This document shows positions 1-29,519 of a stretch of DNA of 64,000 nt, piece by piece. Source of the DNA: an uncultured virus (IMG/VR IMGVR_UViG_3300017990_000011). Lineage: Duplodnaviria; Heunggongvirae; Uroviricota; Caudoviricetes. The DNA lies in the IMG/VR virus record IMGVR_UViG_3300017990_000011. The stretch is one strand, 5' to 3'. A model generated the notes under the pieces. It was not told the DNA's origin, made no database searches, and worked only from the letters and a program-made list of their open reading frames with translations. The stretch's first letter is position 1. Each line of letters starts with the position of its first letter. The position numbers and the translations under genes were made by a program.

Positions 1-393
1 TTGAGCCTTGTTCGTGATATTCCAAGTCACTTCGTTGACGCGAATGTGATGGGTTTGTACGGAAGATCTGGAAAGAAGATACGAAGAATCCCAGTAAACA
101 GCATGCATCACCAGTGTCTTGCCTTGAGTACACAAGGAAAGGCACCAAGTGTCTTGAAGAAAGATCTTGATGTCTTGGCGTGGACGGAGCGTGGGTTCGA
201 CAAGAAAGACAAAGAGGTAATGATTGAGGCATTTGCGATCAAAACCTGGCCGAGCAGGATTCTTGCGGTTCAATGGCATCCTGAAGAGCTGAACGATACA
301 GCTCTGTTGAGAGGCTTTTTCTCACCAAAGAGGGCTAAAGATGACAACGAACACGAGCAGAAGGCTGTGGCAGGTCAAGGTAGCGCTTCATAA
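1..393 (+). CDS. Class I glutamine amidotransferase / peptidase C26 (gamma-glutamyl hydrolase-like), 5'-truncated by window edge
   Basis: VNSMHHQ and AVQWHPE motifs of peptidase C26; catalytic Cys region lies outside the window. Confidence 0.8.
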   Translation: MSLVRDIPSHFVDANVMGLYGRSGKKIRRIPVNSMHHQCLALSTQGKAPSVLKKDLDVLAWTERGFDKKDKEVMIEAFAIKTWPSRILAVQWHPEELNDTALLRGFFSPKRAKDDNEHEQKAVAGQGSAS

Positions 394-598
394 AGGCAGC
401 ACCTCGTCTATGTCTTTTTCAATCAGGCAGCTGTCGAAATTCATTAAATCATATAAAAAGCACTACAATGATAAGACGAAACGCTCTTATCTTGAATGGG
501 TAATGTTGGCTGCCAGTGAAGTAGCAAAACAAACTTTTCCTGAAGAGGAAATAACATCCATAACTATAAACGATAAGGTCAAACAATGTTTAAAGTAG
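341..598 (+). CDS. Hypothetical protein
   Basis: 85-aa ORF overlapping both neighbours in a tightly packed operon; start uncertain. Confidence 0.5.
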   Translation: MTTNTSRRLWQVKVALHKGSTSSMSFSIRQLSKFIKSYKKHYNDKTKRSYLEWVMLAASEVAKQTFPEEEITSITINDKVKQCLK

Positions 599-1572
599 GA
601 TATAAAAAGGAGATTTTAAACGTTGACTGGGTCAGCGAAATTATAATTGAACGGTTTGATGCTGCATTCGAATTATTAACTGACAATGCTGTCATATATG
701 GCGGTGCTGTCAGAGATGCTCTTGCTGGCAAACCATTGGTCGGAGACCTTGACATATCAGCGGCGCCTAGAGAGTTCGAAAATATACATCAATCCTTTAT
801 CCGCAGCGCCAGATGGAAACAAGTACAAAAGATGCCAGGTGTTCCTCAAAAAACTGATAGGTATGGAAAGAGAAAGATGCCTATCAATAATGTTGTGGAA
901 TTTGAAGGCATCAATGGCGCTTGTGCTCAACTAATCTGTTCGTCTGATCATAAATCCTCTAGAAAAGAGGCAACCCTTCACGTTCCGCGAAATGTAGACA
1001 TAATATGCTGTGGTGTTATTATAGACATCAACGGCAGAGTCTATGAGGTAGTGGAAGGCGCACATGATGATTGTTTGAAAGGTATCCTTAGACTTAATAA
1101 GGATATGGATCATCCACATCTTGAATCATTACTACAAAGAGCGGCTAAACTTGAGAAAAGAGGTTGGGTAAACAAGCTTGATCTCAAAGAGGCGAAGAGG
1201 TTGGAGCGTAAAAAGAAACCTAAAAGTGCTCGGCTAAAAAAAGCCAAGTCGGCATCTTCTGCCAAGTCCAAAGGTAAGATCAAGATCACTGGTGATCTAA
1301 GCACAGCAGAAGAAAGGGTAGTGGCCGCAACCCCAGTACAAACGTGGCCGGAGCCAACTGATCCTGTGCCTGAACATTATGTTCCAGGAGAGAAAAGAGG
1401 TGAGTGGGTGAAGGGTGCAAACTATGGTAGAATATCTTCTGATGTTATTCCTTCCGAGGAGTTTCGTAGAAAATATATGATATCCGACGATGATGAGGAT
1501 GGTTCAGAAGCTAAGAAAGAACGTCTCCGTGAGATGTATGGAGCAAAACCTAGAAAGTGGAGGGAAATGTAA
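586..1572 (+). CDS. Poly(A) polymerase/CCA-family nucleotidyltransferase head domain with basic C-terminal tail
   Basis: IYGGAVRDALAG...DLDI signature (GGxVRD...DxD); no HD or tail domain seen. Confidence 0.75.
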   Translation: MFKVGYKKEILNVDWVSEIIIERFDAAFELLTDNAVIYGGAVRDALAGKPLVGDLDISAAPREFENIHQSFIRSARWKQVQKMPGVPQKTDRYGKRKMPINNVVEFEGINGACAQLICSSDHKSSRKEATLHVPRNVDIICCGVIIDINGRVYEVVEGAHDDCLKGILRLNKDMDHPHLESLLQRAAKLEKRGWVNKLDLKEAKRLERKKKPKSARLKKAKSASSAKSKGKIKITGDLSTAEERVVAATPVQTWPEPTDPVPEHYVPGEKRGEWVKGANYGRISSDVIPSEEFRRKYMISDDDEDGSEAKKERLREMYGAKPRKWREM

Positions 1573-1956
1573 ATGGCAAAGATTAACAAAGTGTTTGTAT
1601 ATGGAACACTAAAAGAGGGCGGTCATTTCGCACAAGGATTTGATAAAGTCCGTGTAAGCACCATGAAAGCCACCATGGTTGGTAAATTGATGGATGTAAA
1701 TGGTTTTTATCCTGGCCTGGTGGAAGGCGATGGTGTTGTACATGGTGAAGTCCATGAATATAAACACATGGATGATGTCATCAGTGCCATGGATTCTATT
1801 GAAGGGTACGTCAGACACAACCCAGACCGTAGTCTTTATAAACGTAAGGTGGTAAAGGCGGAGACTGAGGATGGTGAGGTTGAGGTCTTTGCATATTTCT
1901 TCAATCAACCAACAGAGGGGCTCAAGGAAGTTAAAAACGGAGTATGGGAAATATAA
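1573..1956 (+). CDS. Gamma-glutamylcyclotransferase (GGCT/AIG2-like)
   Basis: N-terminal VFVYGTLK, VHGEV, D-x-x-EG, LYKR motifs. Confidence 0.9.
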   Translation: MAKINKVFVYGTLKEGGHFAQGFDKVRVSTMKATMVGKLMDVNGFYPGLVEGDGVVHGEVHEYKHMDDVISAMDSIEGYVRHNPDRSLYKRKVVKAETEDGEVEVFAYFFNQPTEGLKEVKNGVWEI

Positions 1957-1965
1957 GGAGGCGAG

Positions 1966-2250
1966 ATGAAAATTCTGGCAGTAGTTACAAATACAGGTGC
2001 AAGGTATGAGGCTGGAGCACCCATATCTGAGGGTGGAAGTCCTGTCAAGTCAATTACGTATCGCAGGAATTGTTATAACAACGGACATCAAGGACAATTC
2101 CCTGTCTACGAAATAAGATTCGAAGGCATGGATATCGTACAGCTTATCAATGACAGATATGCCGAGATAGTTGTGGTTGATCCTGAAAAAGATAAAAAGA
2201 AGGATGATGTGCCAGAACTGCCGGACGGAGGTGAAGAGAATGTCGGATAA
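1966..2250 (+). CDS. Hypothetical protein
   Basis: 94-aa ORF with AGGAGG RBS. Confidence 0.65.
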   Translation: MKILAVVTNTGARYEAGAPISEGGSPVKSITYRRNCYNNGHQGQFPVYEIRFEGMDIVQLINDRYAEIVVVDPEKDKKKDDVPELPDGGEENVG

Positions 2251-2941
2251 AATACTTGTACTCAATGGTGAATCATATGCCAGTGCTGTAAAGGACATCG
2301 GCCCTGTAGTTACAGACATGACGGAATTTCTACACAAACCAACAGATTTCAGATGTGTTCTGTTCACTGGTGGGGAGGATGTATCACCTGAATTGTATGA
2401 TGATGCTTCACCCAAGGGCTACTGCCATAACAATGAACTGCGTGATAAGGTTGAGCAGAATGTTTTCAAGCTAGCCTATGCAAATAACATCGCTATGGCA
2501 GGTATATGTCGTGGGATTCAATTCTTAAATGTGATGGCTGGCGGCAAGCTCATTCATCATTTGGATGGTCATTCAGTAGGTAAGTCACATCTTATGACCA
2601 CCACTATCCAAGAGGCGCCTATATTAGTTAACAGCCTGCACCATCAGGCTGTCATTCCACCTGATGATGCTGTTATCATTGGATGGTCTACTGTCCAGCT
2701 ATCGAAGAAATATATAGGATTCCAAGATCATCACATCAATTATGATGGTAAGGAGATAGAGGCGATGGTGATTCCTAAGTACAACATATTCGCCGTCCAA
2801 TATCACCCTGAAATGATGTCTGAGGATTCTACCGGCTACATCTTCTTCAATGCCGGCCTGACAACGTTCCTTGAAATGGGAGCCGATGAATTTGTAAAAG
2901 AATTCAGATATGGAGAACAAAATGGCACTGTACAGGCATAG
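2240..2941 (+). CDS. Class I glutamine amidotransferase / peptidase C26 (PuuD-like)
   Basis: FTGGEDVSPELY, GICRGIQFLNV (catalytic Cys), NSLHHQ, QYHPE; start moved to ATG 2240 after GGAGGTG RBS. Confidence 0.9.
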   Translation: MSDKILVLNGESYASAVKDIGPVVTDMTEFLHKPTDFRCVLFTGGEDVSPELYDDASPKGYCHNNELRDKVEQNVFKLAYANNIAMAGICRGIQFLNVMAGGKLIHHLDGHSVGKSHLMTTTIQEAPILVNSLHHQAVIPPDDAVIIGWSTVQLSKKYIGFQDHHINYDGKEIEAMVIPKYNIFAVQYHPEMMSEDSTGYIFFNAGLTTFLEMGADEFVKEFRYGEQNGTVQA

Positions 2942-3434
2942 ATCTGGGTTCACAGAACATTATCTCCAATTGATGGTGTCACTACCAGTCAATAGGTTTC
3001 TCCTGATAAAAGATCCTGTCAAAGAGCGGTGGGAATTGACTCTGAATGCATGGTTGCCTAACGCACACACTGACCCACAATTGACTGCCAGGCAACAAAT
3101 AGCTCATGTATTTAAAATGAGCCCTCTTGATAAAAGTTATTCATTAACAAAAATATGTACTGTAATAGCTGATATTCAAAAATTACATGTACATGTGTAT
3201 TCAGTCAAACCACTCAAATTGTTCAAATTTACTTCAGTAGCTTCAAAAGAATTCAAGATAAGATCGTTGTCTGATATTGTAAATGATTTACTTAACGAAG
3301 GTGCTGAACCAGGTATGTCTAATATATATACTACTGCTACTGTAGCTGTTCTTAGGAACATAGGAGACACGGAGTTATTATGGGACAGGAGATTAGAAAA
3401 TTCTTGGAAAAAGAAGTCTACGTTGCTGGTGTAG
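2910..3434 (+). CDS. Hypothetical protein
   Basis: 174-aa ORF in operon. Confidence 0.6.
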   Translation: MENKMALYRHRSGFTEHYLQLMVSLPVNRFLLIKDPVKERWELTLNAWLPNAHTDPQLTARQQIAHVFKMSPLDKSYSLTKICTVIADIQKLHVHVYSVKPLKLFKFTSVASKEFKIRSLSDIVNDLLNEGAEPGMSNIYTTATVAVLRNIGDTELLWDRRLENSWKKKSTLLV

Positions 3435-3892
3435 AAGATGATTTTGACGAGATGCATATGTCAGAAGAGTTGTTTATCTGTGAAACACTTGAGGGACTCC
3501 ACGAGCATTTAAACAGTCTTACACCATCAATGGACTCAGATGTGAAGGTTCTTCACGGTGTATTAACAAACGGTTTGGTTTTACCAAGCAAATTACATCG
3601 CCGTTCTGTGTTTCTTTTGATACCTAATGAAATGGCCGCTGAAGGAATGGGTGCAATAAAAGAATGCGATGTTGATGATATAGATGATCTCGCTGAAAAA
3701 ATAACCAATATGGTTGCAGAAGGTCAATATTATATCTGGGATCCATCAGACATCTTTATACTATATGGTTATGAAATCAAAGTCACATTGGGTATTGCTG
3801 ATGATGATGTTGATGATGAGGCCATCGCATCGGGCCACAAAATATTAGATGAGGTAAAACAGATTGCCAAAGCACATAGTGCGGGAGGATAA
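3380..3892 (+). CDS. Hypothetical acidic protein
   Basis: 170-aa D/E-rich ORF with GGAG RBS. Confidence 0.65.
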   Translation: MGQEIRKFLEKEVYVAGVEDDFDEMHMSEELFICETLEGLHEHLNSLTPSMDSDVKVLHGVLTNGLVLPSKLHRRSVFLLIPNEMAAEGMGAIKECDVDDIDDLAEKITNMVAEGQYYIWDPSDIFILYGYEIKVTLGIADDDVDDEAIASGHKILDEVKQIAKAHSAGG

Positions 3893-3895
3893 AAC

Positions 3896-4291
3896 ATGTC
3901 TTCATTGATACAATTGGAATTATACACACAAACACAGGAAGATCTCAAATACGAGGGTCGTTTGTTGGGGTTGATTACTTCTGAAGAGTTTGCTAAACTC
4001 ATAGATGATAAAACAACCGCAAATAAACTTTACACCAAAGAAACCACACCGTTGGCAGATTTGATGGGTTTAAAAGATGCCGACATCAAAGATATGCGCT
4101 TGGTTATGACAGTGAAATCCAAGAATGAAAAATCAGTACCACTTAAAACTCTCTATGTATCAGATAGGATCGGCTTGATGTCTTATGAATCTATAGGTGG
4201 TAAAACAGGTGACGGTGAGGATGAGATAGTCGTAAATACTGAAAATGATGAATGTTTATTTGTAAAAGAGGTAGACAATGCTGCAAAGTAA
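3896..4291 (+). CDS. Hypothetical protein
   Basis: 131-aa ORF, GGAGG RBS. Confidence 0.65.
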   Translation: MSSLIQLELYTQTQEDLKYEGRLLGLITSEEFAKLIDDKTTANKLYTKETTPLADLMGLKDADIKDMRLVMTVKSKNEKSVPLKTLYVSDRIGLMSYESIGGKTGDGEDEIVVNTENDECLFVKEVDNAAK

Positions 4292-5075
4292 TATAAGAGG
4301 GTGTGGTGCACCCTATACAGTTTCTAAAGAGTCGGAAGATAATGTCTACAAGCCGGGAACACTTGGTCTATTGTCATATGTAAAAGGTGTAGACCTTGAC
4401 TACCCTAATGTAGTATATTTCTTCGTTGTTACAGTACGTCGTGGAAAGGGCGGAAAACAGCGGTTAGATTTTAATGAAATATCTTTTCCGATATTCAATA
4501 CACCAAACTTGATTGACCTTTCGAAGAAGAAAGAATTTATGCCACCTCTTGACAGGCGTTATTTCGTAATGACAGAAACTCTGCCTTTGGTGTTCAGCCA
4601 TGCATTAAACATGGACGGACATGACTTCTTAGCTTGGTCATGTTGTCATGCAAAATACCTTAGCCAACTACGCAAGACTACCAATGGATTCAGGATGTGG
4701 CCGAAAGATAAAAAGCATGTAATGAATGTAATGAATTCAATGGACAATTATATGAACAGCCAACATTTTGATGAAGAACAACGTCAGAATACTTACAATC
4801 ATTATACAGATGGTGAAGCTCGTGATAAATTCATTCGCAAAATGAGACATATATCTAGCGCACTAACTCAATGTCATGTATCATACAAACAGAGAGTCGC
4901 CAAGGCAGAATTAGAGGCGATTATGCATATCAATAAAAACCTCAAAGCGTTTGGTGCTGACAAAAAAGAGGCTGGTGATGCTAGGATATATCATGAAAAG
5001 AAATATAAGAAAATTTCTCAGCTGATTAATATGCAACGTGCTAATAAAAATAAATCTGCATCAAAGTTATTCTGA
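4278..5075 (+). CDS. Hypothetical protein
   Basis: 265-aa ORF, GAGG RBS. Confidence 0.7.
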   Translation: MLQSNIRGCGAPYTVSKESEDNVYKPGTLGLLSYVKGVDLDYPNVVYFFVVTVRRGKGGKQRLDFNEISFPIFNTPNLIDLSKKKEFMPPLDRRYFVMTETLPLVFSHALNMDGHDFLAWSCCHAKYLSQLRKTTNGFRMWPKDKKHVMNVMNSMDNYMNSQHFDEEQRQNTYNHYTDGEARDKFIRKMRHISSALTQCHVSYKQRVAKAELEAIMHINKNLKAFGADKKEAGDARIYHEKKYKKISQLINMQRANKNKSASKLF

Positions 5076-5092
5076 TCATGGTCGAAAGGTTT
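5071..5092 (+). promoter_or_regulatory. Conserved 22-nt intergenic motif, copy 1 (candidate phage promoter/operator)
   Basis: TCTGATCATGGTCGAAAGGTTT matches 20883-20904 at 20/22 positions; both followed by an A-rich tract and an RBS. Confidence 0.55.
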
Positions 5093-5128
5093 TAAGGATT
5101 AAAAAAATAAATTTTGTTCGGAGGAAAA

Positions 5129-6034
5129 ATGTTTCTACCTGGCACGAAACTCGTGATTGTTGAAAGCTCTGTCAAGAAAAAGGCTACTGGTATCAAGCAG
5201 GGTAGTTTGTGCAATCTGATTGAATCACAGCAGACTATTTTCTCACACAGTTGCAATGCTGTAGTTACATATTGTAGTGCTTTGTTCACGAGATATGGTT
5301 TTGAGAAACCCAAAGGTAGGCTGGAAAGAAGAGGGTTTATTAATATCTTTCCAATCGTAATGAATTCTAAAATCACCACTGAAAAGGTTGATAGACACAT
5401 AAATAAGGTGATAAAAAATAGCCAGGAATCTTTGTGTCATGAATGTGATGTGGATTTTGGCACTCCGATTGTAGTAGCCCATCCAGTCATGAGTTCTGGT
5501 ATAGACATGCAAAAAGATCGAGAAGAATTTGATTCTTGGTTCCATGCGGTCATGATGTCAGGTCTTATAGGATACACTATAAACCTCGACAGATTAGATG
5601 CTCACTATAAGAAATTTGCTGATCTAAATTCAGATGATTTCATCGGACATATAAGAAGCATGGCACGTAGCAAGAACAAACGTTTAGAATACCTTGAGAT
5701 GATAAGAGACAATGATCATGGATTTAAAACAAGACTCATAAAAAGATTGATGAGTATGATATCTATAACCTCAAGAAAATATGCCGGACAAACAGTAAAC
5801 AGTATGAAACACTTTATATCGGGCAAGCGGAGAGTTGGCAATGAAGAGGTATTTACTTCACTAGTGACAATGTATTATAATAATAGTATAAAAACTATTA
5901 TAAATATACCAACCAAAGATGTAAACAAAGTTAAGATGAACAACACAGTTATCACCGGCCACCACATACGGGGTCTCTCTCACAGGACTTTGGGGTTGTT
6001 GGGGGATAATCAAGAGACAAAGGGGGATAAGTAA
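5129..6034 (+). CDS. Hypothetical protein upstream of RNA polymerase
   Basis: Long ORF; ATG 5129 follows GGAGG. Confidence 0.7.
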   Translation: MFLPGTKLVIVESSVKKKATGIKQGSLCNLIESQQTIFSHSCNAVVTYCSALFTRYGFEKPKGRLERRGFINIFPIVMNSKITTEKVDRHINKVIKNSQESLCHECDVDFGTPIVVAHPVMSSGIDMQKDREEFDSWFHAVMMSGLIGYTINLDRLDAHYKKFADLNSDDFIGHIRSMARSKNKRLEYLEMIRDNDHGFKTRLIKRLMSMISITSRKYAGQTVNSMKHFISGKRRVGNEEVFTSLVTMYYNNSIKTIINIPTKDVNKVKMNNTVITGHHIRGLSHRTLGLLGDNQETKGDK

Positions 6035-6067
6035 CTATTAACCACTACCATCAGAAAAGGAGCATGT

Positions 6068-9000
6068 ATGCTAGATAACTTGGCCAGCAAAAACCAGTGG
6101 TTGCAGAGCAGAGTTGAGAGTTATTTTTACGCAAGAGCAACAGCAGAGATCCAGAAGTGCGGCGGTACCTGTGATATAAAACTGTTGCCTAGTGTAGTAG
6201 ATAACAATCTGTGGTTAACATTCACAAACGGTAAGGAAACACATTCTGTAACAGTTCCTCTTCCAGTAGAGGAAAACGGTGTATTATTTGTAGATCAACA
6301 TGAAGTTCGCAGATCCCTCTGCAATTATTTTGTAGAAAGCACCGGCGGAACACTTGACTATTGGAATATCATGTATTATATTATATGTGGTGATCCTACA
6401 GGCATAGTTTCTCGGTCTTTTGTAAAGAAGACTCCGTTTCTTCAAAGGGTTATTTACTCATTCCAGAACGAGAACACTGCTACTATCATTTACAGTATGC
6501 AACGTGCAGTCAATGAATTAGTTAGTAAGATGCCGTTGCACAAGACATTCATGAATAGCTGGCTTATGAATCGTCGTCTCATATTTATCGATCCGCTGTT
6601 CGACGAATTGTCTAGTCCAAAAGAGAGACTTGAATATCAGATCGAGAAAGCTAAGAAGTATTTCGACAGAGGTTGGACAGCTCTAGGTCTGTCTGATGGT
6701 GTTTTAGCAGACAAGAACTACATACTTACTGATGACATCAGGAAGTATACACCCTTTGGACTGAAATGGCACAACCCACAGAGGAATCTGTATTCCACAT
6801 TGGGTATGCAGGGTGATGAAAAACCACTCATTAGATCAGAATCTATGGAGAAACTCATAGAGCAGGGTGTCGAGAGAACAGGTTGGAACTGGTTTACTTT
6901 GTTCGCTGACATTCCTGACAACTTCGAGGACCAGATTGTAGTAGATGAATCTCACAAGGATAAGTTCATCACACATCATCGCAGACTTCAGTGCTTTGGT
7001 GAGTTGTCTGTGAAACAGGGCGATAAGCTGAAATATGGGGACATTCTAAGCAGAAATACTGATGGTGGTATTCAGAAATTTGATACCATTGCAGACTCAG
7101 CTACGGTGGAGAGAATAAGCCCGTCTTTCACAAATATAGGTGGGCTACCAGTACTTGTCCACAATGTCATCGTTACCTATAAGTTGAAACTGCGTGATGG
7201 TACAAAGATTACCAATTTTCATGGTAATAAAGGTGTTATTAGACTAAAGCCGCTCGGACATGCCAAGGACCCCCGCACTGGTGAATTGGTGAAAATAGAT
7301 GTCATTGTATCAGCGAAGTCAATCGGCAAGAGAAAGAATTTTGGCCAGCTACTGGAAGCTATGGTCAATAACATCACGGACAATCAAGGCCTGGTTGTAA
7401 CTGATGACTTTCAGCAGCCTGTGGCTGAGGTGCAAGCGGCTATGGTGTCCCATGGATTTAAAGAGGACGCCTCATGGGAGTGTGAAACATATGTCGGCAA
7501 GTTGACTGGTATATGTGGGAAAGTGTTCTGGGGTGTCATAAATCATCCAGAGTACCAGCTCTGGAAGGAAAATGCCACCATTAAAACCAATGGGAAAGAG
7601 CTGAGAACAGCTGGCCTTAAGTTCTCTACCATTGAATTCAGATCACTTGAGACCAGATTCGGCAAAGGCAATCCTATAATCAATGAGATCATGTCTTATA
7701 TGCAGGGTACTGAAAACCTGCACGAGGAACTGACCGTTCTTCGCTCAAAGAAAGGAATATTGCCTAACGATGTGCCGGTAATCAATGTTGCCGACATCAC
7801 TCCCCTCGATCAAACGAATGGGACTATAGTGTCTCGTTCTACAATAAAGGATACAGTAGTAGATGACTGCTATCAGGCTGATGGGTTTATTATGCAACTA
7901 CCAGTAGCTTATCAAACTATATGGGATAAAGAGGAACAGGAAGTAGCAAGTGAGGGTATACCTATGCAAGTAATAACCCCAGCTATGTTATCTATCGCGG
8001 ACTTCTATACTACTGATAAGATCTACATACCAAGTGCTTTCCTTCGTAAGTGTTGGAGACACAGCACAGGTAAGGTCGGACTCAATGACATAGGAGTACT
8101 AGTAAATAATATAGTAGCACTATCCCATAGGTACATGAACAACCCTGAGGAGGCTGCTAATACTACACTACTATACAATGCAATTGGTACCTATTTCAGA
8201 AGGATAGCTGACATCTTGGGTTCTAAACGTGGTGATATCAGTTGTAATGCGATGTCTGTACGATACCCATTCGCTGTCAAAGCAGTGGCTACACTATCCA
8301 ATGGATTGGATAAGAACACTGTAGAAATACCACGGCACATGGCTGAGACATTGATGGTGTCCAATGGTGATATTGTACTAGCTGAACGGTTTCCATGTCT
8401 GGGATTCGTATCAGTGAGACCACAGAAGGTCAAGATAACAGATGACCCAATGGCTCAGTATACTATCAGAGTATCCGGCAACTCACTAGTGTCTCAGAAT
8501 CTGGATTTCGATGGTGATACTCTATTCCTTGCATCGTTCCATACAATAGAGGCTATCGATATACTGAGAAAAGAGTTCAACAATCCAAACAAGACATGTT
8601 ATGATGAGATCAAACGTCTAAACGCTCGCAAAGGTGCGCCACATATTAAATGTATGAGGCTTGCTGACTATAATGTACAACCATTCGCAGACCTGACTAA
8701 TGAGCGTCATGCTGAGATAATAGAGAAGAATACTGGTGTCAAAGCTCAGACTGGACCAGTAATTGCTCTCACATACAATCTCATGAGGATCATGGAGAAT
8801 TCTGGTTTGGAAATGAATAAGAAACTGGAAGTGGGAGTCGAGATGTTTATGGAGAAGGCTGCACAATCAGTCTTCGAACAGAAACATGGTGGACAATCAC
8901 TCCATGAGATAGTCATAGATGCCACCTGTACCGGTGATGTACGTCGTCTAGTAAAGGTAGGATTCAATGAACATATCAGTACCATCATATGTGATACTAT

Positions 9001-9917: not shown

Positions 9918-9929
9918 GAGAGGTGTAAA

Positions 9930-10322: not shown

Positions 10323-10333
10323 AGGAGTGATCA

Positions 10334-10753: not shown

Positions 10754-10754
10754 T

Positions 10755-12696: not shown

Positions 12697-12701
12697 GGAG
12701 A

Positions 12702-15555: not shown

Positions 15556-15565
15556 AGGAGAAACT

Positions 15566-15754: not shown

Positions 15755-15755
15755 T

Positions 15756-16565: not shown

Positions 16566-16579
16566 AGGAGTAAGTAGAA

Positions 16580-17575: not shown

Positions 17576-17587
17576 AGGGAGGTTAAT

Positions 17588-19579: not shown

Positions 19580-19582
19580 ATC

Positions 19583-20887: not shown

Positions 20888-20904
20888 TCGTGGTCGAAAT
20901 GTTT
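20883..20904 (+). promoter_or_regulatory. Conserved 22-nt intergenic motif, copy 2
   Basis: TCTGATCGTGGTCGAAATGTTT; see 5071-5092. Confidence 0.55.
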
Positions 20905-20941
20905 CTAAATAAATTAAAAAAAATTAGATGGAGGTCTTGAC

Positions 20942-22039: not shown

Positions 22040-22044
22040 GTATT

Positions 22045-22473
22045 ATGGGTGAATTTTACACATCATTATCTACTGATGAGATGTCTGTTCAAATAGCATC
22101 TCTGGTAAACCAGTATAACAGATGGTATGTTAAACACACACCTTTCGCCATTAAAAACAGTGCAGCCAGCTATGTGGTAGAGATAGAGGGCTCCAGAGTA
22201 GTTGGCTGTGCTGGTTTTCTCAAAGAGTTTAAAAATTTGAGTAAAATAATGCATGTGTGTGTTATACCTGAGCGGCGGTGCTGTGGTATAGCTAAGCGGC
22301 TGGTAAATCTGGCGGTTAATATGTGTAATACTCAACATGTATACATGACTATAAGGGATGATAATACACCAAGCCTACGTATGGCTATGAGTTTGGGATT
22401 CAACGCAATAGGACGTAAGTGGTCTAGAGATCACTACGTAATAACAATGGGGAGGGAATTGAGCCATGTCTAA
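22045..22473 (+). CDS. GNAT family acetyltransferase
   Basis: VCVIPERRCCGIAKRLV acetyl-CoA motif; NTPSLRMAMSLGF. Confidence 0.85.
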   Translation: MGEFYTSLSTDEMSVQIASLVNQYNRWYVKHTPFAIKNSAASYVVEIEGSRVVGCAGFLKEFKNLSKIMHVCVIPERRCCGIAKRLVNLAVNMCNTQHVYMTIRDDNTPSLRMAMSLGFNAIGRKWSRDHYVITMGRELSHV

Positions 22474-23227
22474 AGGACAGCACGCATTAAAATATGTATA
22501 TCTGGAATTGATCAGCACCACTGACAGTAAATTTGACGTAGTGCGTGGTCTCTTCAGCGGTATAACTACTAAGGAAGAGAAAGATCCGAAGAAAGAGGCG
22601 GATGAATTCTATATCCTGTATTATGAGAAAGCCGGTGCTACATCCACAAGCAAGGCTCAGCCGGTAACTTCCCTCTACAATACCAAATACTATGATGTTA
22701 TGCATATCGAAGCCTTAAAGAATGATGTCAAAGAGCTTATCTTCTTCACAAAAGAAGATGATGATCAGGAAAAAGCTCACAAGAAACTCATCAAGCTTCT
22801 CGAGGAAATGAGAGAAGATGAGAGGATGTATAAAAATGATGAGGATATTATAGACGTGGCTGCTTATACAGATATACCGTCTGATAAAGTTTCAACAGAG
22901 GAGAAGAAGAAAGACACCTCTACGAGAACAAATCGGCGGAATACTTCAGCAGCATGTGGGTACAATCATACTAGTGGTTATAATCAGGGATATAACCATA
23001 ACACTGGTTATAACTATCAAAAGAAAGAGCCTGAAATGACAGTATTAAAGAGGAGCTCTGGTAAAAAACCGACCAAAGAGGCATTGGAAACGATGCAGGC
23101 AAAGATAGATGAGATCATGGGTGGGACATATGTACCGGAGTTGCCTGAACTTCCAGTTGATGATGAACCGGAAGATGATAAAACTGATGCGCAAGAAGAT
23201 GATTACGCGGGTCATTATATGATGTAG
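22466..23227 (+). CDS. Hypothetical acidic protein with GYN repeats
   Basis: 253-aa ORF; GYNHTSGYNQGYNHNTGYNY; acidic C-terminus. Confidence 0.7.
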   Translation: MSKGQHALKYVYLELISTTDSKFDVVRGLFSGITTKEEKDPKKEADEFYILYYEKAGATSTSKAQPVTSLYNTKYYDVMHIEALKNDVKELIFFTKEDDDQEKAHKKLIKLLEEMREDERMYKNDEDIIDVAAYTDIPSDKVSTEEKKKDTSTRTNRRNTSAACGYNHTSGYNQGYNHNTGYNYQKKEPEMTVLKRSSGKKPTKEALETMQAKIDEIMGGTYVPELPELPVDDEPEDDKTDAQEDDYAGHYMM

Positions 23228-23238
23228 AGAGGTAATAC

Positions 23239-24225
23239 ATGAAGATTATTGGCCATGAGAATACAAAAGAACAAATAAAGATAGCGTCGCTAGCTGCGGA
23301 GAAACGAAACAAAGCGCTACCTCATATTTTATTCTCTGGTGCTGCTGGTTGTGGTAAGACCAGCATGGCTAAATATGTGGCTTCTCATCGCAATGTGAAG
23401 ATTGTATCGGCGGTTCCTAAAAATCTTAAAGATTACAACTCAATTATAAAAGTGCTCGAACGTTTAGACCATAACAATTATAGTCCAATGGGCGACAGAC
23501 TAGGGCCTATAAGACCAAGTGTGTTGTTCCTTGACGAAATTCACCAGCTGCCTTTATATGGTCAAGAATTATTAGGTGTAGCTATGGAGAATTACACGAT
23601 AGAGGCCAGAGTACCTGGGCAGGTACATTGGACTCCATACTTCACCCTCATTGGCGCTACAACTGATGATGGTAAGTTATCTAAACCGTTCAGAGACAGG
23701 TTTAAACTGAGATTTGTTTTCGAACCGTATTCAGAAGATGAGATAGTAGATATCATTACAGCGAAAGCAAACACATCTAAGATACCTATTACTTATGATT
23801 CTGTAAAAGCCATCGCCAGAAGAAGTAGAGGTGTACCAAGGCTAGCTGTTGGATTTCTCGGAAGAACAAGAGATATGGCTATAGCTAGAGGTGAAAAGTT
23901 TGTAGGGCTACATGCAGTCGAATTAGTTTTTAAACAACTTGGTATTGATGAAAATGGATTCACTCAGATAGAGATGAAGATACTCAAAGCACTGTATGAA
24001 TCCGATGGACCACTTGGATTGGATAACTTATCCATAGTGGTTAATGAAGCACCAAAAACTATTTTGACATCTATTGAACCATTCCTGATTCAGAAAGGTC
24101 TTATTCAAAGAAGTGGAAAGGGTAGGATACTTTCTAAAAAGGGTGAAGACTACCTCATGGAATCAGGTTATCTTGGTAAGAAGAAATCCAAGATGACGAT
24201 AGAAGTTGGATATGAGAGGAAATAA
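23239..24225 (+). CDS. ruvB: Holliday junction branch-migration ATPase RuvB-like
   Basis: HILFSGAAGCGKTS, LFLDEIH, FTLIGATT, PFRDRF, SRGVPR, EPFLIQKGLIQRSGKGR. Confidence 0.9.
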   Translation: MKIIGHENTKEQIKIASLAAEKRNKALPHILFSGAAGCGKTSMAKYVASHRNVKIVSAVPKNLKDYNSIIKVLERLDHNNYSPMGDRLGPIRPSVLFLDEIHQLPLYGQELLGVAMENYTIEARVPGQVHWTPYFTLIGATTDDGKLSKPFRDRFKLRFVFEPYSEDEIVDIITAKANTSKIPITYDSVKAIARRSRGVPRLAVGFLGRTRDMAIARGEKFVGLHAVELVFKQLGIDENGFTQIEMKILKALYESDGPLGLDNLSIVVNEAPKTILTSIEPFLIQKGLIQRSGKGRILSKKGEDYLMESGYLGKKKSKMTIEVGYERK

Positions 24226-25106
24226 TGCCATTCAGGAGCACACCAGTAAAATGGAAAGAAGCAGACGATGATGATGGTAGATACAAAAACGTTGGTGGTT
24301 TTAAGTACGACCTCATCAAGAAATCTGTTGTCTATACCAAAGAAGAGATGCCAAAATTCTTTTTGGCTGATACTTCTGAAGAGGCGGAGACATTGTACAA
24401 GGAATATGATAGACTTCTTAATAATATGTCTTCATCATATGCTAAAGCCACTGGTGTATCCAAAAGTGATCTATTTGGTGAGGCTTTAATAGGTCTCAGT
24501 AGAGCCAAACGAGACTGGGATCCAAATAAGAGTGATAGTTTTAGAAATTATGCTATCTTTCGTATTAAAGATTCATTGAATGAATTTGTAAGAAAAAACT
24601 CACTAACAGTGCATGTGCCGTCCTATATAAGAAAAGCACACCAACAGGTGGCGCGTTTTAAAAGGCTGTTAGATGTTTATAATCTTGGTTATGAGGTTCT
24701 TTATGACGCCTCGATAAACGATAATGTACCAAAGGAAATAACGGAAAAAATAGAGAGCCTTATAACCAAATTAACTCATGCTGCAGAGAGAGCACATATT
24801 ACCTATGAAGATTTTATCGATAGGGTAGAACATATACCCACAGTATCAGTAGATGATCTTATTGGGCCATCAGTAGAAGAGGTGCTCAGAGAAAACGAAC
24901 GTATGGAGGCAGCATTAATAGTAGATAAAATAGTAGAATATATGGATGATGAAGAACTATCCATTGCCGAAGGTATCATGGAAGGTAAAACATATAGGGA
25001 GATATCAGAGGAGTTAGGTAAACCACCTCACTGGTCTCACTATAAAATTAAACGATTTAGAGACCGATTACTAAAGGTAATGGAGGCAGAGATTCATGAA
25101 AAGTGA
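24225..25106 (+). CDS. Sigma70-family RNA polymerase sigma factor
   Basis: Region 2-like DLFGEALIGLSRAKRDWDP...FRNYAIFRIK; region 4 HTH GKTYREISEELG. Confidence 0.82.
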   Translation: MPFRSTPVKWKEADDDDGRYKNVGGFKYDLIKKSVVYTKEEMPKFFLADTSEEAETLYKEYDRLLNNMSSSYAKATGVSKSDLFGEALIGLSRAKRDWDPNKSDSFRNYAIFRIKDSLNEFVRKNSLTVHVPSYIRKAHQQVARFKRLLDVYNLGYEVLYDASINDNVPKEITEKIESLITKLTHAAERAHITYEDFIDRVEHIPTVSVDDLIGPSVEEVLRENERMEAALIVDKIVEYMDDEELSIAEGIMEGKTYREISEELGKPPHWSHYKIKRFRDRLLKVMEAEIHEK

Positions 25107-25260
25107 TGCTGTAAGACGATTAGTTATGGAGGGTTCCAGTCTTCTAGAACGTATGGAAGAGGACATGCCTCCAGAGTATTTCAAATGGATCGTAGAGTTT
25201 GAGACATTTGAAGAGGCGTTGAATGATGTTAAAGAAGAATTAAAGAAGGAGGTGATATGA
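25096..25260 (+). CDS. Small hypothetical protein (54 aa, not in ORF track)
   Basis: GGAGG RBS, ATG 25096 to TGA 25260, MKSDAVRRLVMEG... Confidence 0.55.
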   Translation: MKSDAVRRLVMEGSSLLERMEEDMPPEYFKWIVEFETFEEALNDVKEELKKEVI

Positions 25261-26766
25261 TTGAAGACTTTACAAGTGTTACAACGGCTTCAGAATGAGA
25301 CTAAAGCCGAAGTGTACCTTGTTGGGGGTTATGTAAGAGACCTCTTACGAAAGAAAAAGAACGATGATCTAGATGTAGTTGTTCGTAAGCTGACTTTGAA
25401 AGACATAAGGAAGTTCCTTAAGAAACATGGGTCAGTAAAGGTTGTTAGGTTGTCCAGTAAGGGCAATGCGGCTACTATATCTATGGTATATTTCAGAGCT
25501 AAAGGCGACAAGCAAGAAGCTCAGATTACCCAGCCTCGTCGGGGCAAAAGACAGATACCTGATTCAAGGAATTCTCTAAAGCAGGATTGTCAATACAGAG
25601 ACTTCCGTATCAACGCACTGTACCTACCTGTAGATTATAAATCACGTAACGATGTGATAGATATAACAGGTGGTAAAGTTGATATTATGAATCGTACTAT
25701 CAATACTAATGGATCTGCAGTTGACAGGTTCAAGGAATCACCAGTACGCATGTTGAGAGCCGTTACATTGGCTGCCTCAACAGGTTATACTTTATCAGAA
25801 GAAATACTGGGTGTGATTCCTCATATGGTAGATCTGTTAGAAACTATACCGTTTGAGAACATACGAGACCATCTTAACAAGGTGCTACTCAGTAAGAAAC
25901 CATCTAAATCCTTTAAACTGATGAACAGACTCAACATGCTTGGCTATGTACTGCCTGAGCTGGAGAGATGTATCGGGGTGAAACAGGATAGACGATATCA
26001 TAAGTATGATGTGTTTACGCATAGCATTTATGCCTGTGATAATGCAGAGCTTGATTTAAACATTAGGTTGGCTGCATTACTACATGATATTGGTAAACCT
26101 GATACTCGGAAGTTTATTGGAGATAGAATAACATTTCATAAACATGAATCAGTAGGAGCAAGTCTTACTAAGATCGCACTAACACGGTTGAAGTATGACA
26201 ATGCTACTATTACTGCTGTTGGTAAACTAGTACAACTACATATGTACCATTACACCAGTGATGTATACAAGTGTACAGCAGAGGATTGCAAGTGGGCTCG
26301 TCCTGTAAGTGCCTTTCCAGAGGGACTTAAGGATGATGTATGTCCTATATGTAATTCCGCTGTAGAAGTGGCTAGTGGTTGGACTGACAATGCCGTACGT
26401 AGATTCATAAAGAAAGCTAAGATCAATGATGACAACATTGATGATCTCGGCAATATTCCTCTGTTCCGTTTGAGACAGGCAGAGAGGCTAGGTAATGGGT
26501 TGAAAACCACTGCCGTAACGGAAAAACAGAAGGACTTTGAGGAGAGAATAAAGACTGTCTATGAGCGCGGAGCAAGTCTTGAAATTAAGGACTTAGATAT
26601 TGATGGTAATATCATTATGTCTACGTTCCAGCTTAAACCATCTCAGAAGGTGGGGGATATCCTTAATTACATCCTCGATAAGGCAAGAGAAAACAAACAG
26701 CTTAACAACAGGCTCAGTTTGTTGAAATTAGCAACTGAATATCTTTACCAGGAGTCAGTCAAATGA
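25261..26766 (+). CDS. cca: CCA-adding tRNA nucleotidyltransferase with HD domain and Zn-ribbon insert
   Basis: YLVGGYVRD...DLD, RDFRINAL, RFKESPVRMLRA, AALLHDIGK, FHKHE. Confidence 0.9.
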   Translation: MKTLQVLQRLQNETKAEVYLVGGYVRDLLRKKKNDDLDVVVRKLTLKDIRKFLKKHGSVKVVRLSSKGNAATISMVYFRAKGDKQEAQITQPRRGKRQIPDSRNSLKQDCQYRDFRINALYLPVDYKSRNDVIDITGGKVDIMNRTINTNGSAVDRFKESPVRMLRAVTLAASTGYTLSEEILGVIPHMVDLLETIPFENIRDHLNKVLLSKKPSKSFKLMNRLNMLGYVLPELERCIGVKQDRRYHKYDVFTHSIYACDNAELDLNIRLAALLHDIGKPDTRKFIGDRITFHKHESVGASLTKIALTRLKYDNATITAVGKLVQLHMYHYTSDVYKCTAEDCKWARPVSAFPEGLKDDVCPICNSAVEVASGWTDNAVRRFIKKAKINDDNIDDLGNIPLFRLRQAERLGNGLKTTAVTEKQKDFEERIKTVYERGASLEIKDLDIDGNIIMSTFQLKPSQKVGDILNYILDKARENKQLNNRLSLLKLATEYLYQESVK

Positions 26767-26960
26767 AACCTACAGGTAAGTTTAGATTCAGACAGAGTAA
26801 GTTTGGATACAAACTAATACTTCAGATGGAATGGCTGTGCCATAGATATGATGGTAGTGATGGGCTACATGAATCATTGGAATGGCATGATGCCAAGATA
26901 TCTGACTTACTTGTAGTTAATAAGTTAGAAGACTTCGCTAAATTTATACACCTCAAATAA
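26763..26960 (+). CDS. Hypothetical protein
   Basis: 65-aa ORF overlapping cca stop, AGGAG RBS. Confidence 0.55.
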   Translation: MKPTGKFRFRQSKFGYKLILQMEWLCHRYDGSDGLHESLEWHDAKISDLLVVNKLEDFAKFIHLK

Positions 26961-28200
26961 AGCATGTTGGGTTCGTACAAGGATGGTGGGTGGATGGGAT
27001 GTTTATTAACCAACTATACTTTCGGAGGTGTTTAACATATTGTGTGAGGGTTACAATTCGACGGTAATCACTTAGTAACATCAAATTTATGCGGCACACC
27101 GTCGCCTGATGCGAAAAGGTTAACTGGACAACGTGACCCATGCCTGGTCTGTAGTATATATCAGGACAATAATACAATCAGTACTAAGCGACAAAAATTG
27201 TGGGCGCGTGGGCCCAGCGCCCTTGGATACAAAATGTGCCTTGTCGTGTTGGTAGTGTGTTTCTGAGTGCGCACCCGTCTACCGCTGGGTAGAGTGCAAA
27301 CAAAACCAAACATCAGGTAACCCTGGTGGAAACATGGGACTTTAGTATTGAAAGAAGTGGGGTTCGAATCCCTGCCAGATTATAGGACACACAAACCGAG
27401 AGGTGTGACAGAGCAGACCGTGGGCCTAATCAAGTATTCGTCTCCAATGAATTCTTGAGCCTGTGGACGTCAGTTCTCGAGAATGGGTCACAATGGCAGC
27501 ACCTTAAGCTCAGCCATAGGGTTCAACTCCCTGCCTCTCTCAAGAAATATCTTCCTTAGATATGCTCGGGTAGAAACCCCTAAGCTAAGTCTAAGGAGAA
27601 CACTCCCTCTGGAGCAGAGATGACAAGACTCTGTTATGAAAGAGTGAGTCGAAATGTTCTTTCTCAAGCTGGTACACTGAGTTTATATACCGGACCATCG
27701 GGACGTAACAATCGAAAACCAAAGTAGCGAAAACGTTATTAAGCACTTGCGCTGAACCCCGAAGTAGCGAAACAGCCAGTACGATTACACGCCGCCGTAT
27801 ATCCTATGGAATAAGCCTTTAAGTATTAGTGAAAGAGCGTAGGAACGTGTGGGTTGGGGTGGGCTGAGTTTTAGAGCCTTGTTCTCGGTAAAAAACAAGG
27901 CTAACAAGGTACCACAATTAGTACCGATGCAAGATCTCCTTCTATTTAAAGGTAGACGAGAAACTCGCACTCGTCTACCACAACTATATTTCTAATAAAT
28001 ATATTAGAAATGGGGAAGTTTACAGCGCAACTATATATCAACATTCGGTTGGAGACTTTCCGTTTATACGGAAACGGGTTCAGCTGTACCCGTTATTGAA
28101 CTTTCCCGAACCCAGATAAGTACTATGTGATTATTGCTGTTCGTTAAATCTTGACCTTAGTTTTATCTGCTTATGCGAAAGCAGAACATGCGATGTAGCT
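26961..28200 (+). ncRNA. Structured non-coding RNA island (several RNAs or one large RNA; family unknown)
   Basis: ~1.2 kb with no credible ORF in an otherwise packed genome; many hairpins and two T-loop motifs. Confidence 0.6.
27398..27540 (+). ncRNA. tRNA-like RNA with greatly enlarged D-arm region
   Basis: GAGAGG/CCTCTC terminal stem, TGTGAC/GTCACA arm, ATGGC...GCCAT arm, AGGG-TTCAACT-CCCT T arm. Confidence 0.5.
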
Positions 28201-28316
28201 GGCAAATGATAACGTCGCAGTACAGGTTGGGGGTTGATTACATACTCAGCTCTAATCACTATGTGCTTATCACAAGACGTAAGACATGGTCTAATACACT
28301 TCAATTAGGAAAAATT

Positions 28317-28751
28317 ATGAATGATTTTGATGATACCGGATCGGCAGGAGAATTTTCCTATGTGTTTGAAGATGAAGATAGCTTTCTAGATAATGCTGAA
28401 GAACTTTTATTTGATGAATATTATGCTGGAGAGGAAGAAGAACCAGTAGGTAGATCAATGATGGAAGACCCAGAAATAGCTGAGGGGTTTGACGCAGTTT
28501 CACTCGGCATGGGATTAAGTCTTGGCGCTGAGTTAGCAGCTGAAGAAAGACAAAAAGCTGAATTACTCAACCGTCTTAATGAAATAAAAGTTCCTATTGA
28601 CATTGATGAAAACACAGACAAGGAGAATATAGCGAAAGCTCAGCAACTTACTTCATTACATAGTGGGAAGACTACTAAGTATCGTAAGACTGAGTTTGAT
28701 AAATTTCTAGATGACATTTATTCTGGTCGGAAGAGCCTATGGGATGATTAA
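28317..28751 (+). CDS. Hypothetical acidic protein
   Basis: ATG 28317 after AGGA; upstream extension in the ORF track runs into the non-coding island. Confidence 0.65.
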   Translation: MNDFDDTGSAGEFSYVFEDEDSFLDNAEELLFDEYYAGEEEEPVGRSMMEDPEIAEGFDAVSLGMGLSLGAELAAEERQKAELLNRLNEIKVPIDIDENTDKENIAKAQQLTSLHSGKTTKYRKTEFDKFLDDIYSGRKSLWDD

Positions 28752-28760
28752 GGAGCTGAT

Positions 28761-29519
28761 ATGGCAAAAATATGTCTGATATCCAAAAAAGGCTCTAAGG
28801 CTGCTAAAAAGATACGGCAGAACACAAGTCTTACTATATATAAGAAAGGAGCAAATCCTGATTTTATAGTTAACTATGGTTTGGCAGGTGATAGGTTAGA
28901 TTCATTCTTCCGTAGAAACCCAAAGGCCAGAAGAGTTAAATGTATCAATCACAGTATAGGGTGTAATAAATACAGAGCAGTTAAGGACGCTGAGAAGGCT
29001 GATATTAGAACACCTGAAACATATCTATCTATACCTAGAGGCGGTAAGATTAAGAACTTTATCGTTAAGAAGTTTCACTCAATAGGTGGTATAGGTATAG
29101 CGAAAGCAAAAGATCGCAGTAAACAAGTTGGGAAGTACTACCAAGAATACATAAACAATAGACGGTACGAACTTAGAGTTCATGCTTTCTCTTGGATGGA
29201 TAATTGGCGTGTACAAAAACGTCTTGGTAAACCAGATACAATAGCATGGAATTATAAAAATGGTGGTTACTTTTCTAACGTACGAAATCCTCAATCATTC
29301 TCTGTCTTTAAAGAGGCGATTGATATGGCAAAGAAGGTTCTCGAAGTACGTAGGATGTCATTTGGAGCCGTTGATTTCATAGTAGATAATAGATTACGTG
29401 TTTACTTTATTGAAATTAATTCGGCGCCAGGATTTGAGAACTTAAGTGAAGAGATTTACATAGATGCCTTCGATAGATTAAGTAAACTAAAGGTATCGAA
29501 GATTAGAAAACTTTTGTAG
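28761..29519 (+). CDS. RimK-like ATP-grasp ligase (second)
   Basis: NKYRAVK..ADIRTP, YELRVH, FGAVDF, FIEINSAPG. Confidence 0.85.
   Translation: MAKICLISKKGSKAAKKIRQNTSLTIYKKGANPDFIVNYGLAGDRLDSFFRRNPKARRVKCINHSIGCNKYRAVKDAEKADIRTPETYLSIPRGGKIKNFIVKKFHSIGGIGIAKAKDRSKQVGKYYQEYINNRRYELRVHAFSWMDNWRVQKRLGKPDTIAWNYKNGGYFSNVRNPQSFSVFKEAIDMAKKVLEVRRMSFGAVDFIVDNRLRVYFIEINSAPGFENLSEEIYIDAFDRLSKLKVSKIRKLL

Follow-up and report, generated by a model that had tools for sequence, protein, structure and literature searches.

Putative amide ligases and gamma-glutamyl hydrolases in two gene modules of an uncultured huge phage

The uncultured virus IMGVR_UViG_3300017990_000011 of the IMG/VR database (Duplodnaviria; Heunggongvirae; Uroviricota; Caudoviricetes) encodes a large set of enzymes predicted to form and cleave amide bonds, which we analyzed in a stretch of 64,000 nucleotides (nt) of its DNA (hereafter, the window). 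The gene content of the window is of the uncultured huge phage type. Eleven enzyme genes had been named in a preliminary description made from the sequence alone, and all of them are real, located on the plus strand at the expected coordinates, and members of the expected enzyme superfamilies, as assigned by Pfam, with PHROGs and NCBIfam in agreement at the family level, for all but the gene at 13867-15555, which is placed by its modeled fold. The same description had treated positions 1 to 29519 as one contiguous system, a view that we abandon: this 29.5-kb span consists of two tight modules and one separate ATP-grasp gene, with about 15 kb of unrelated genes in between. Module A (<1-2941) is composed of a C26 hydrolase, an open reading frame (ORF) of 85 amino acids (aa), a nucleotidyltransferase-like protein, a gamma-glutamyl(amine) cyclotransferase (GGACT), a small tailed protein, and another C26 hydrolase, with neighboring genes that overlap or abut. 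Module B (12702-23227) encodes a COOH-NH2 ligase, a ligase of the glutamine synthetase (GS) fold, a class II glutamine amidotransferase (GATase), an unknown protein of 331 aa, a second class II GATase, a second COOH-NH2 ligase, an ATP-grasp ligase, a GNAT acetyltransferase, and an unknown protein of 253 aa; its genes overlap or are spaced by 3 to 54 nt except for a single 200-nt gap after the gene of the 562-aa GS-fold ligase. A search of 15 module proteins against the PADLOC defense models at E<=0.001 gave 0 matches.

In both COOH-NH2 ligases of module B, the catalytic part is preceded by a domain of about 115 residues. COOH-NH2 ligase 1 (12702-13907, plus strand; Pfam PF14395, E 2e-19; likely start at the ATG at 12711) is a GS-fold enzyme with an N-terminal double-psi beta-barrel, and COOH-NH2 ligase 2 (19583-20887, plus strand; PF14395, E 2.5e-22) was modeled with a predicted local distance difference test score (pLDDT) of 89.2 as a complete double-psi barrel of the Cdc48/PEX1/VAT-N type at residues 2-117 followed by the GS-fold catalytic domain at residues 118-434. 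A profile of the barrel region built from eight sequences and covering both ligases matches designed Cdc48/VAT-type double-psi barrel proteins (E 6e-6), and structural alignments of the ligase 2 model extend to formate-dehydrogenase caps (8.2) and expansins (7.5). When the barrel region by itself served as query, a word-index search returned only 6 proteins, all of them PF14395 members and too few to gauge the spread of this fusion.

The second gene of module B encodes a GS-fold carboxylate-amine ligase of 562 aa (13867-15555, plus strand) in the position of an "amidoligase", as it had been called in the preliminary description. The fold is borne out by a structural model that matches YbdK, GCS, and PafA, but the family is not: no Pfam match was found at E<=10, including PF12224 (Amidoligase_2), and PF12224 was found neither in four related records at E<=1 nor in any of 53 distant relatives of this ligase. 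Profile matches thus back the other named families directly and the amidoligase only at the level of the fold. The 562-aa ligase has 556 homologues at 54-91% identity and 235 cluster representatives at E<=1e-3, and its invariant residues include E40/E42, H225/H227, and R343/H345/E347/R349; catalytic residues are conserved in the ligases and GATase domains alike. Sixteen invariant cysteines lie between residues 53 and 136, within an insert at residues ~50-140 that is modeled with low confidence and absent from distant relatives of ~430 aa. Profile-profile comparison revealed no relationship of the 562-aa ligase to the COOH-NH2 ligases (probability 0.1%), and its profile gave only a chance match among PDB sequences.

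The third gene of module B encodes a stand-alone class II GATase domain of the N-terminal nucleophile (Ntn) type with 269 aa (GATase-269; 15756-16565, plus strand; Pfam GATase_6) that starts with Met-Cys. Across 28 orthologues, its residues C2, R94, N106-P109, and D142/E144 do not vary, and we take these Cys, Arg, Asn, and Asp residues to be the class II GATase nucleophile and glutamine site. In some lineages, the 562-aa gene is directly followed by a lone GATase, as in phage phiEco32. In two lineages, L002 (9501-10292) and L060 (2711-3538), GATase-269 starts with MG.. or MS.. instead of MC.., so that the Ntn nucleophile is lost there though the gene is retained. The single sizeable gap of module B, upstream of GATase-269, is filled in the window by a hydrophobic 72-aa ORF (15536-15754, plus strand); relatives have 12-14 nt between the genes flanking this gap, and the ORF is therefore lineage-specific or no gene. 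GATase-663 (17588-19579, plus strand; GATase_6) comprises a class II GATase domain, a long low-complexity linker rich in Ser, Thr, and Lys, and a C-terminal helical domain in 663 aa; it starts with MCG, as do most full-length orthologues. The 331-aa protein between the two GATases (16580-17575, plus strand) is poorly conserved, has no family match in Pfam or NCBIfam, and ends in a tail rich in Tyr, Ser, and Thr.

Downstream of COOH-NH2 ligase 2 follows the RimK-like ATP-grasp ligase (20942-22039, plus strand), which matches the Pfam RimK domain with 30.4 bits (cut-off 21) but stays under the NCBIfam cut-offs (rimK_fam, 50.2 vs 143.4 bits; PRK10446, 21.3 vs 331); its nearest solved sequence is annotated as "probable alpha-L-glutamate ligase". 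The GNAT acetyltransferase gene (22045-22473, plus strand; Pfam E 2e-11) starts 5 nt after it, and the best NCBIfam match of its product is RimI (39 bits vs a cut-off of 86). The module closes with the 253-aa protein (22466-23227, plus strand), which has no family match and consists of a conserved N-terminal domain, a stretch rich in Tyr, Asn, and Ser of a kind also seen in the 331-aa protein, and an acidic tail.

Module A is cut by the start of the window, since in G001 and G004, the two related records examined in full, it is preceded by a third PF14395 COOH-NH2 ligase of 304-306 aa just upstream of the first C26 hydrolase gene. This ligase starts at the catalytic motif and therefore has no N-terminal domain. 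The five ligases counted in the preliminary description are all present in the window, but with this sixth one in relatives the count was incomplete. G001 and G004 keep module A in the same order and tightly packed. The first hydrolase of the Peptidase_C26/class I GATase type (C26a; 1-393, plus strand; Pfam E 1.5e-7) is represented by its C-terminal 130 aa, with the 5' part of the gene lying before the window start, and shows what we take to be the WHPE motif; its full-length orthologues have 264-270 aa in G004 (C26, E 3e-25) and G001 (E 2e-29). The second one (C26b; 2240-2941, plus strand, in an ORF open from 2171; Pfam E 4e-20) is complete, starts at the ATG at 2240 as supported by the N-termini of relatives, and is 47% identical to its orthologues in G001 and G004. 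Its best NCBIfam match, far under the cut-off, is gamma-glutamyl-CDP-amidate hydrolase, and its nearest solved sequences, 3fij and 7d4r, are annotated as "probable glutamine amidotransferase". The GGACT/AIG2-like cyclotransferase (1573-1956, plus strand; Pfam GGACT, E 1.9e-19) is found upstream of module B and in the same orientation in 5/5 related virus records that cover this region.

Between GGACT and C26b lies the gene of a small protein of 94 aa (1966-2250, plus strand) that has no Pfam family and bears a conserved acidic C-terminal tail; this slot is kept in G001, G003, and G004. The family comprises 29 clusters with C-termini that nearly all read ..[E/P/D]LP[E/D/A] plus 0-1 residue, while the window copy has seven extra residues and ends with ..GGEENVG. 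A search of the ESM Atlas gave neither a family nor a lead for this protein. Six of its clusters and clusters of the amidoligase list equally long longest contigs, and two more match sizes among the gathered loci, which is indirect evidence that the two proteins co-occur. We regard the 94-aa protein as a candidate carrier, acceptor, or docking partner of the enzymes around it. The remaining genes of module A encode a weakly conserved small ORF of 85 aa between C26a and the nucleotidyltransferase-like gene (341-598, plus strand), matched by ORFs of similar size in the same slot of G001 and G004 at 12-21% identity, and a nucleotidyltransferase-like protein of the Pol-beta type with 328 aa (586-1572, plus strand; Pfam PolyA_pol, E 0.02). 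The latter has a GGAVRD...GDLD motif typical of the head of CCA-adding enzymes and poly(A) polymerases, with G39-D44 and G53-D56 invariant in an alignment of 3 sequences, a variable, low-complexity tail, and no tRNA-binding body; orthologues occupy the same slot in G001 and G004. By analogy to GS adenylylation, one may speculate that it nucleotidylates a pathway intermediate or regulates a GS-fold ligase.

Detached from both modules, the second ATP-grasp ligase (252 aa; 28761-29519, plus strand; Pfam ATP-grasp_3) has orthologues of 48-50% identity in G004 and G001 at differing distances from module B. Directly upstream of it we observed a gene for a very acidic protein of 192 aa (28173-28751, plus strand) that also adjoins the second ATP-grasp gene in G001 (34% identity over 82 residues) and is possibly a partner or substrate of this ligase.

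Synteny of module B was studied in loci anchored on the 562-aa ligase (4+5 IMG/VR loci and 80 metagenome loci, 89 altogether), of which 9 were dropped because a 600-nt stretch of their anchor was identical to that of another locus. Genes were counted, among the 80 distinct loci that were left, in those with long enough flank to be informative, and since all loci were chosen via the 562-aa ligase, co-conservation is conditional on this protein. COOH-NH2 ligase 1 is present in 54/54 informative loci, GATase-663 in 41/41, COOH-NH2 ligase 2 in 36/36, the ATP-grasp ligase (20942-22039) in 33/33, and the GNAT adjacent to it in 29/32, while the 331-aa protein was found in 34/49 (median identity 25%) and the 253-aa protein in 22/32. 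GATase-269 is present in 54/59, so that the duplication of enzyme classes stressed in the preliminary description is real for the two class II GATases of the window but not universal. Family-assigned genes retain their order and orientation in 29/32 to 54/54 loci at 35-55% protein identity. The RuvB-like ATPase (30/30), helicase (43/43), and fused RNA polymerase (33/33) encoded nearby were scored in the same way, and the median identity of the 562-aa ligase (55%) is about that of the RNA polymerase (52%) and the helicase (57%), which argues for a central role in infection rather than an optional metabolic extra. The module B block is clade-wide and core-like and not the peculiarity of one phage. 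The preliminary description had staked its reading on profile matches and on co-conservation in relatives, and with the named families matched and the gene neighborhood strongly kept it stands up on these two points.

As the preliminary description had already pointed out, this neighborhood resembles one of phage phiEco32, and Pfam confirms a cassette of the same gene order there. In the direction of transcription, it comprises gp86 (COOH-NH2_lig), gp84 (Amidoligase_2, PF12224), gp83 (GATase_6, 676 aa), and gp77 (GGACT); the product annotated as ATP-grasp, gp80, comes between the last two. According to its gene table, the LUZ24-like phage UFV-P2 has the same order at ORF21-29 (PMC3890496). Like these small cassettes, module B encodes a COOH-NH2 ligase, a GS-fold "amidoligase", a class II GATase of ~670 aa, and an ATP-grasp ligase in the same order and orientation, and both lie in an early/replication gene region with a helicase next door; a GGACT gene is also shared, but here it belongs to a separate module ~10 kb upstream of module B. 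The ATP-grasp ligase of the window (20942-22039) is homologous to gp80 (BLASTP E 8e-13), and GATase-663 is the counterpart of gp83 in size, though only their N-terminal GATase domains align. Between the 562-aa ligase and gp84, only the DGSL..E and CSxHxH motifs align (BLASTP E 0.16; hhalign probability 36% over 55 columns). The clade of the window differs in having two or three COOH-NH2 ligases, two of them with a Cdc48-N-type barrel, where phiEco32 has a single one, gp86, which at 268 aa is too short for a barrel domain. Further additions to the small cassette are the stand-alone GATase domain, the GNAT, the second ATP-grasp ligase, the two C26 hydrolases, the nucleotidyltransferase-like protein, and the tailed small protein. 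Judged by these sequence comparisons, module B is an elaborated counterpart of the phiEco32/LUZ24 cassette, an enlarged form that belongs to the core of its clade. What is new are the barrels on both module-B COOH-NH2 ligases, the 16-Cys insert in a GS-fold family outside Pfam, and the acidic-tailed small protein, and the domain fusions among them offer practical routes to the substrate.

The small cassette goes back to a prediction by Iyer et al. 2009 and has since been termed a "putative peptidoglycan modification module"; the idea of peptidoglycan modification is attributed to that work in passages of two later papers, which still describe the function as unexplored (PMC10580990, PMC11945000). 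This agrees with the remark of the preliminary description that the product of the cassette is unresolved, although the published peptidoglycan hypothesis did not appear there. Our literature search (amidoligase plus phage, hypermodification, huge phage, and the Pfam names) found no experimental study of the cassette, and the passages found in a survey of jumbo phages do not discuss it (PMC7824862).

The enzyme families at this locus fit the scheme of making and removing gamma-glutamyl or amide bonds that the preliminary description had sketched. In GS-fold ligases, a carboxylate is phosphorylated and then transferred to an amine, and nearly all characterized members use the gamma-carboxylate of glutamate; ATP-grasp enzymes of the RimK type extend a terminal carboxylate with glutamate. 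Glutaminase domains of the Ntn type deliver ammonia or hydrolyze gamma-glutamyl amides, which are also cleaved by both C26 hydrolases and GGACT. In the system of the window, three GS-fold ligases, with a fourth upstream in relatives, and one or two ATP-grasp ligases would accordingly join an ATP-activated carboxylate to an amine; the most probable source of this carboxylate would be the gamma position of glutamate or else a terminal acidic residue. Either the two Ntn glutaminase domains supply ammonia from glutamine or they may hydrolyze gamma-glutamyl amides, and the GNAT may cap a free amine. Module A would remove or recycle the adduct, with the two C26 hydrolases and GGACT releasing the amine and yielding glutamate or 5-oxoproline. 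In the weakest step of this proposal, the acceptor would be a protein or peptide in the cytoplasm of the infected cell, recognized via the Cdc48-N-type barrels of the two module-B COOH-NH2 ligases; we favor such an acceptor because of these barrels of the AAA-N type and the tailed small protein.

We are confident that the locus encodes a homologous cassette that performs the predicted ATP-dependent amide ligation, and it seems reasonably likely that its chemistry is that of writing and erasing gamma-glutamyl groups. The complete proposal, i.e., gamma-glutamyl/amide write and erase chemistry with a protein or peptide as acceptor, has in our estimate a probability of roughly 0.35, and the interpretation given in the preliminary description is thus partly supported. 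Several observations weigh against this proposal. All loci that show the conserved arrangement were chosen via one protein and belong to one clade. The link between the 562-aa ligase and gp84 is weak, and the former lacks the membership in Pfam Amidoligase_2 that gp84 has. The structural similarity to PafA/Dop is no greater than that to YbdK or gamma-GCS, and the matches to RimK and RimI are far under the NCBIfam cut-offs. The small cassette of phiEco32 is without a barrel, and gp76, encoded after the GGACT gene of that phage, has no tail comparable to that of the 94-aa protein. Finally, the best-known roles of GGACT, C26 hydrolases, and stand-alone Ntn domains involve small gamma-glutamyl compounds, which favors a small molecule as acceptor.

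In this light, the foremost alternative, unlikely on balance, is that the enzymes make and recycle a small molecule such as a gamma-glutamyl amine (e.g., a gamma-glutamyl polyamine) or a short non-ribosomal peptide; the gamma-glutamyl group could serve here as a temporary protecting or activating group later removed by the C26 hydrolases and GGACT. Polyamine utilization (PuuA/PuuD) and butirosin synthesis (BtrJ/BtrG) are precedents, and characterized C26, GGACT, and EgtC-like Ntn enzymes act on small gamma-glutamyl compounds. The weak NCBIfam matches to EgtC, PuuD-type enzymes, and gamma-glutamyl-CDP-amidate hydrolase point the same way, as do the annotation of the solved sequences nearest to C26b, the conservation in the Ntn domain of GATase-269 of residues that presumably bind glutamine, and a spermidine-synthase-like gene outside both modules (56907-57488, minus strand). 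Against a small molecule, four to six different ligases would be many for one small amine, Cdc48-N-type barrels and a Cys-rich insert would be unusual in ligases of this kind, and family scans found no transporter, pyridoxal phosphate (PLP) enzyme, oxidoreductase, or other tailoring enzyme in either module. A modification of peptidoglycan precursors, in which the stem peptide would have residues added or amidated at its free carboxylates while still in the cytoplasm in order to block superinfection or ready the wall for lysis, is improbable in our view. The ATP-grasp and GATase families do include the wall-precursor enzymes Ddl, MurT/GatD, and AsnB-type proteins, module B is homologous to and syntenic with the small cassette, and this is how the phiEco32/LUZ24 cassette has been read in print, though the passages concerned describe a hypothesis that was never tested (PMC10580990, PMC11945000). 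However, family scans of the modules found no Mur-ligase or membrane-associated protein, and the sole hydrophobic ORF (15536-15754) would have no room in relatives. Moreover, the block is located amid the genes of RNA polymerase, helicase, RuvB-like ATPase, and sigma factor and away from lysis genes, and its barrel is of the AAA-ATPase N-domain type at the sequence level.

The location among genes for DNA and RNA transactions might instead suggest that amino acids or amides are attached to a modified base of the phage DNA, evading restriction. According to passages of Lee et al. 2021, genes for amidoligases and amidotransferases adjoin those for thymidine hypermodification in viral contigs (PMC8989533), and the window encodes a dCMP deaminase, uracil-DNA glycosylase (UDG), DNA methylases, and an HNH-GmrSD-like nuclease. 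Family scans of the window found no hydroxymethylase of the thymidylate synthase family, TET/JBP, or TGT/DpdA protein, with the 5-HMUDK and aGPT-Pplase models left out of the search. The thymidylate-synthase-family hydroxymethylase (PF00303) and TGT/DpdA (PF01702) were each found in 0/4 related records, one of them rated 100% complete, as was Tet_JBP (PF12851) in a search run without a positive control. The lack of PF00303 and TGT in these four records makes a role in DNA modification less likely, we know of no record of modified bases in phiEco32 itself, and we consider this reading very improbable. Even smaller is the chance that there is no system and that unrelated auxiliary genes have become neighbors by accident. 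The differing distances of the second ATP-grasp gene (28761-29519) in relatives and the ~15 kb of unrelated genes in the span could be taken that way, but the synteny counts contradict it: an arrangement that recurs in 80 distinct related loci, with order and orientation kept in 29/32 to 54/54 of them at the identities given above, is more than chance, the genes are tightly packed, and the same order is seen in the unrelated small phages phiEco32 and UFV-P2.

Several known systems help to define what gamma-glutamyl or amide chemistry on a protein or peptide could look like. In the case of pupylation, the structural similarity to PafA is no better than that to YbdK or gamma-GCS, there is no match at the sequence level, Pup ends with GGQ/GGE whereas the conserved small protein ends with ..LP[E/D/A] (..GGEENVG in the window copy), and family scans of the window revealed no proteasome or Mpa partner. 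A RimK-domain ATP-grasp ligase beside a GNAT with RimI as its best NCBIfam match, adjacent in 29/32 loci, recalls the RimK/RimI pair, but the scores of 50 and 39 bits are far under the cut-offs of 143 and 86, and a link to ribosomal proteins S6/S18 would be speculative. The Puu (PuuA/PuuD), butirosin (BtrJ/BtrG), and LysW/LysX pathways are protect-and-release or carrier pathways that pair a gamma-glutamyl ligase of the GS fold or ATP-grasp type with a C26 hydrolase or a GGCT-type cyclotransferase, and LysW itself is a small carrier protein that holds the substrate at its acidic C-terminus. None of them is, to our knowledge, known from phages in this form. The protect-and-release pathways differ from the phage modules by their tailoring enzymes, and LysW differs from the small protein of the window, which has no zinc ribbon or EDWGE tail. 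It is conceivable, though doubtful, that the phage encodes a reversible protein-tagging or carrier-protein system in which barrel-aimed ligases with a PafA-like core act together with ATP-grasp enzymes to place a glutamyl/amide adduct on, or with, the acidic C-terminus of the ~95-aa protein, to be erased by C26 hydrolases and GGACT. Such a system would amount to a counterpart of pupylation or LysW-type carrier chemistry, encoded by the phage and at work while it takes over the machinery for transcription and replication of its host.

Many phages, among them therapeutic Pseudomonas phages, carry the phiEco32/LUZ24 cassette, and the barrels of protein-binding type on two ligases, the Cys-rich insert, and the tailed small protein are handles for finding its substrate. 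That the modification is reversible becomes plausible with an "eraser" module set apart from the ligases, and a protein target would imply a new kind of virus-encoded post-translational modification.

Outside the modules, the regions 2942-12701 (~9.8 kb) and 23228-28760 hold genes for RNA polymerase, a superfamily 2 (SF2) helicase, a RuvB-like ATPase, a sigma factor, a CCA-adding enzyme, and unknown proteins, the first two of them between modules A and B and the following three downstream of module B according to Pfam. The RNA polymerase (1133 aa; 6068-9469, plus strand) combines Rpb2_6 (beta) and Rpb1_2 (beta') signatures in one protein (Pfam, PHROGs) and is therefore a fused, minimal polymerase of the multisubunit type; a protein with sigma-70 region 2 is encoded 15 kb downstream (24225-25106, plus strand). 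Also present in the window are tRNAs, a transfer-messenger RNA (tmRNA), a ClpB-like ATPase, a caspase-like protease, and a PAS sensor. A nucleotide search with positions 12000-23000 of the window against 50,697 deposited phage records gave no match, the 562-aa ligase and ligase 2 showed no BLAST-level similarity to these records in tblastn searches, and a locus search in IMG/VR with the single sequence of ligase 2 found no match either. Contigs of relatives reach 330 kb, and one IMG/VR relative of 268,764 bp is rated 100% complete. Six matches come from genome bins labeled Stahlbacteria, Woesearchaeota, Muribaculaceae, Patescibacteria, and Desulfobacteraceae; because these are five unrelated groups, we read them as mis-binned phage contigs and draw no conclusion about the host.

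Read with code 11, the long ORFs listed for the window stay open, and no stop-codon recoding was noticed. The minus-strand half (39299-63537) encodes a ClpB-like AAA protein, a Rad52-like protein, two DNA methylases, and an HNH plus GmrSD-N-like nuclease as well as the UDG, a caspase-family protease, a cREC-REC protein, a PAS-PAS-REC sensor, Hsp20, and the dCMP deaminase. On the same strand lie a tRNA with anticodon CTA, i.e., of the amber-suppressor type and labeled "Pyl" by ARAGORN (48951-49023), and the phage tmRNA (50708-51037) with an unusual tag peptide ending in ..SKVLYA. A region of ~1.2 kb at 26960-28170 has no ORF of at least 60 aa starting inside it in any frame and no Rfam family. 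The only two tRNA T-loop-like GGTTCRAMTCC motifs of the window (27361-27371 and 27520-27530; chance expectation 0.12) both fall within it, and with a folding z-score of -2.2 the region may contain degenerate or unusual tRNA-like or other structured RNAs. Further downstream, positions 29794-31351 (plus strand) encode a NadD-like nucleotidyltransferase (NCBIfam E 7e-20, under the cut-off) followed by a 276-aa protein without assignment, whose homologues in G001 and G004 precede module A by ~3-5 kb.

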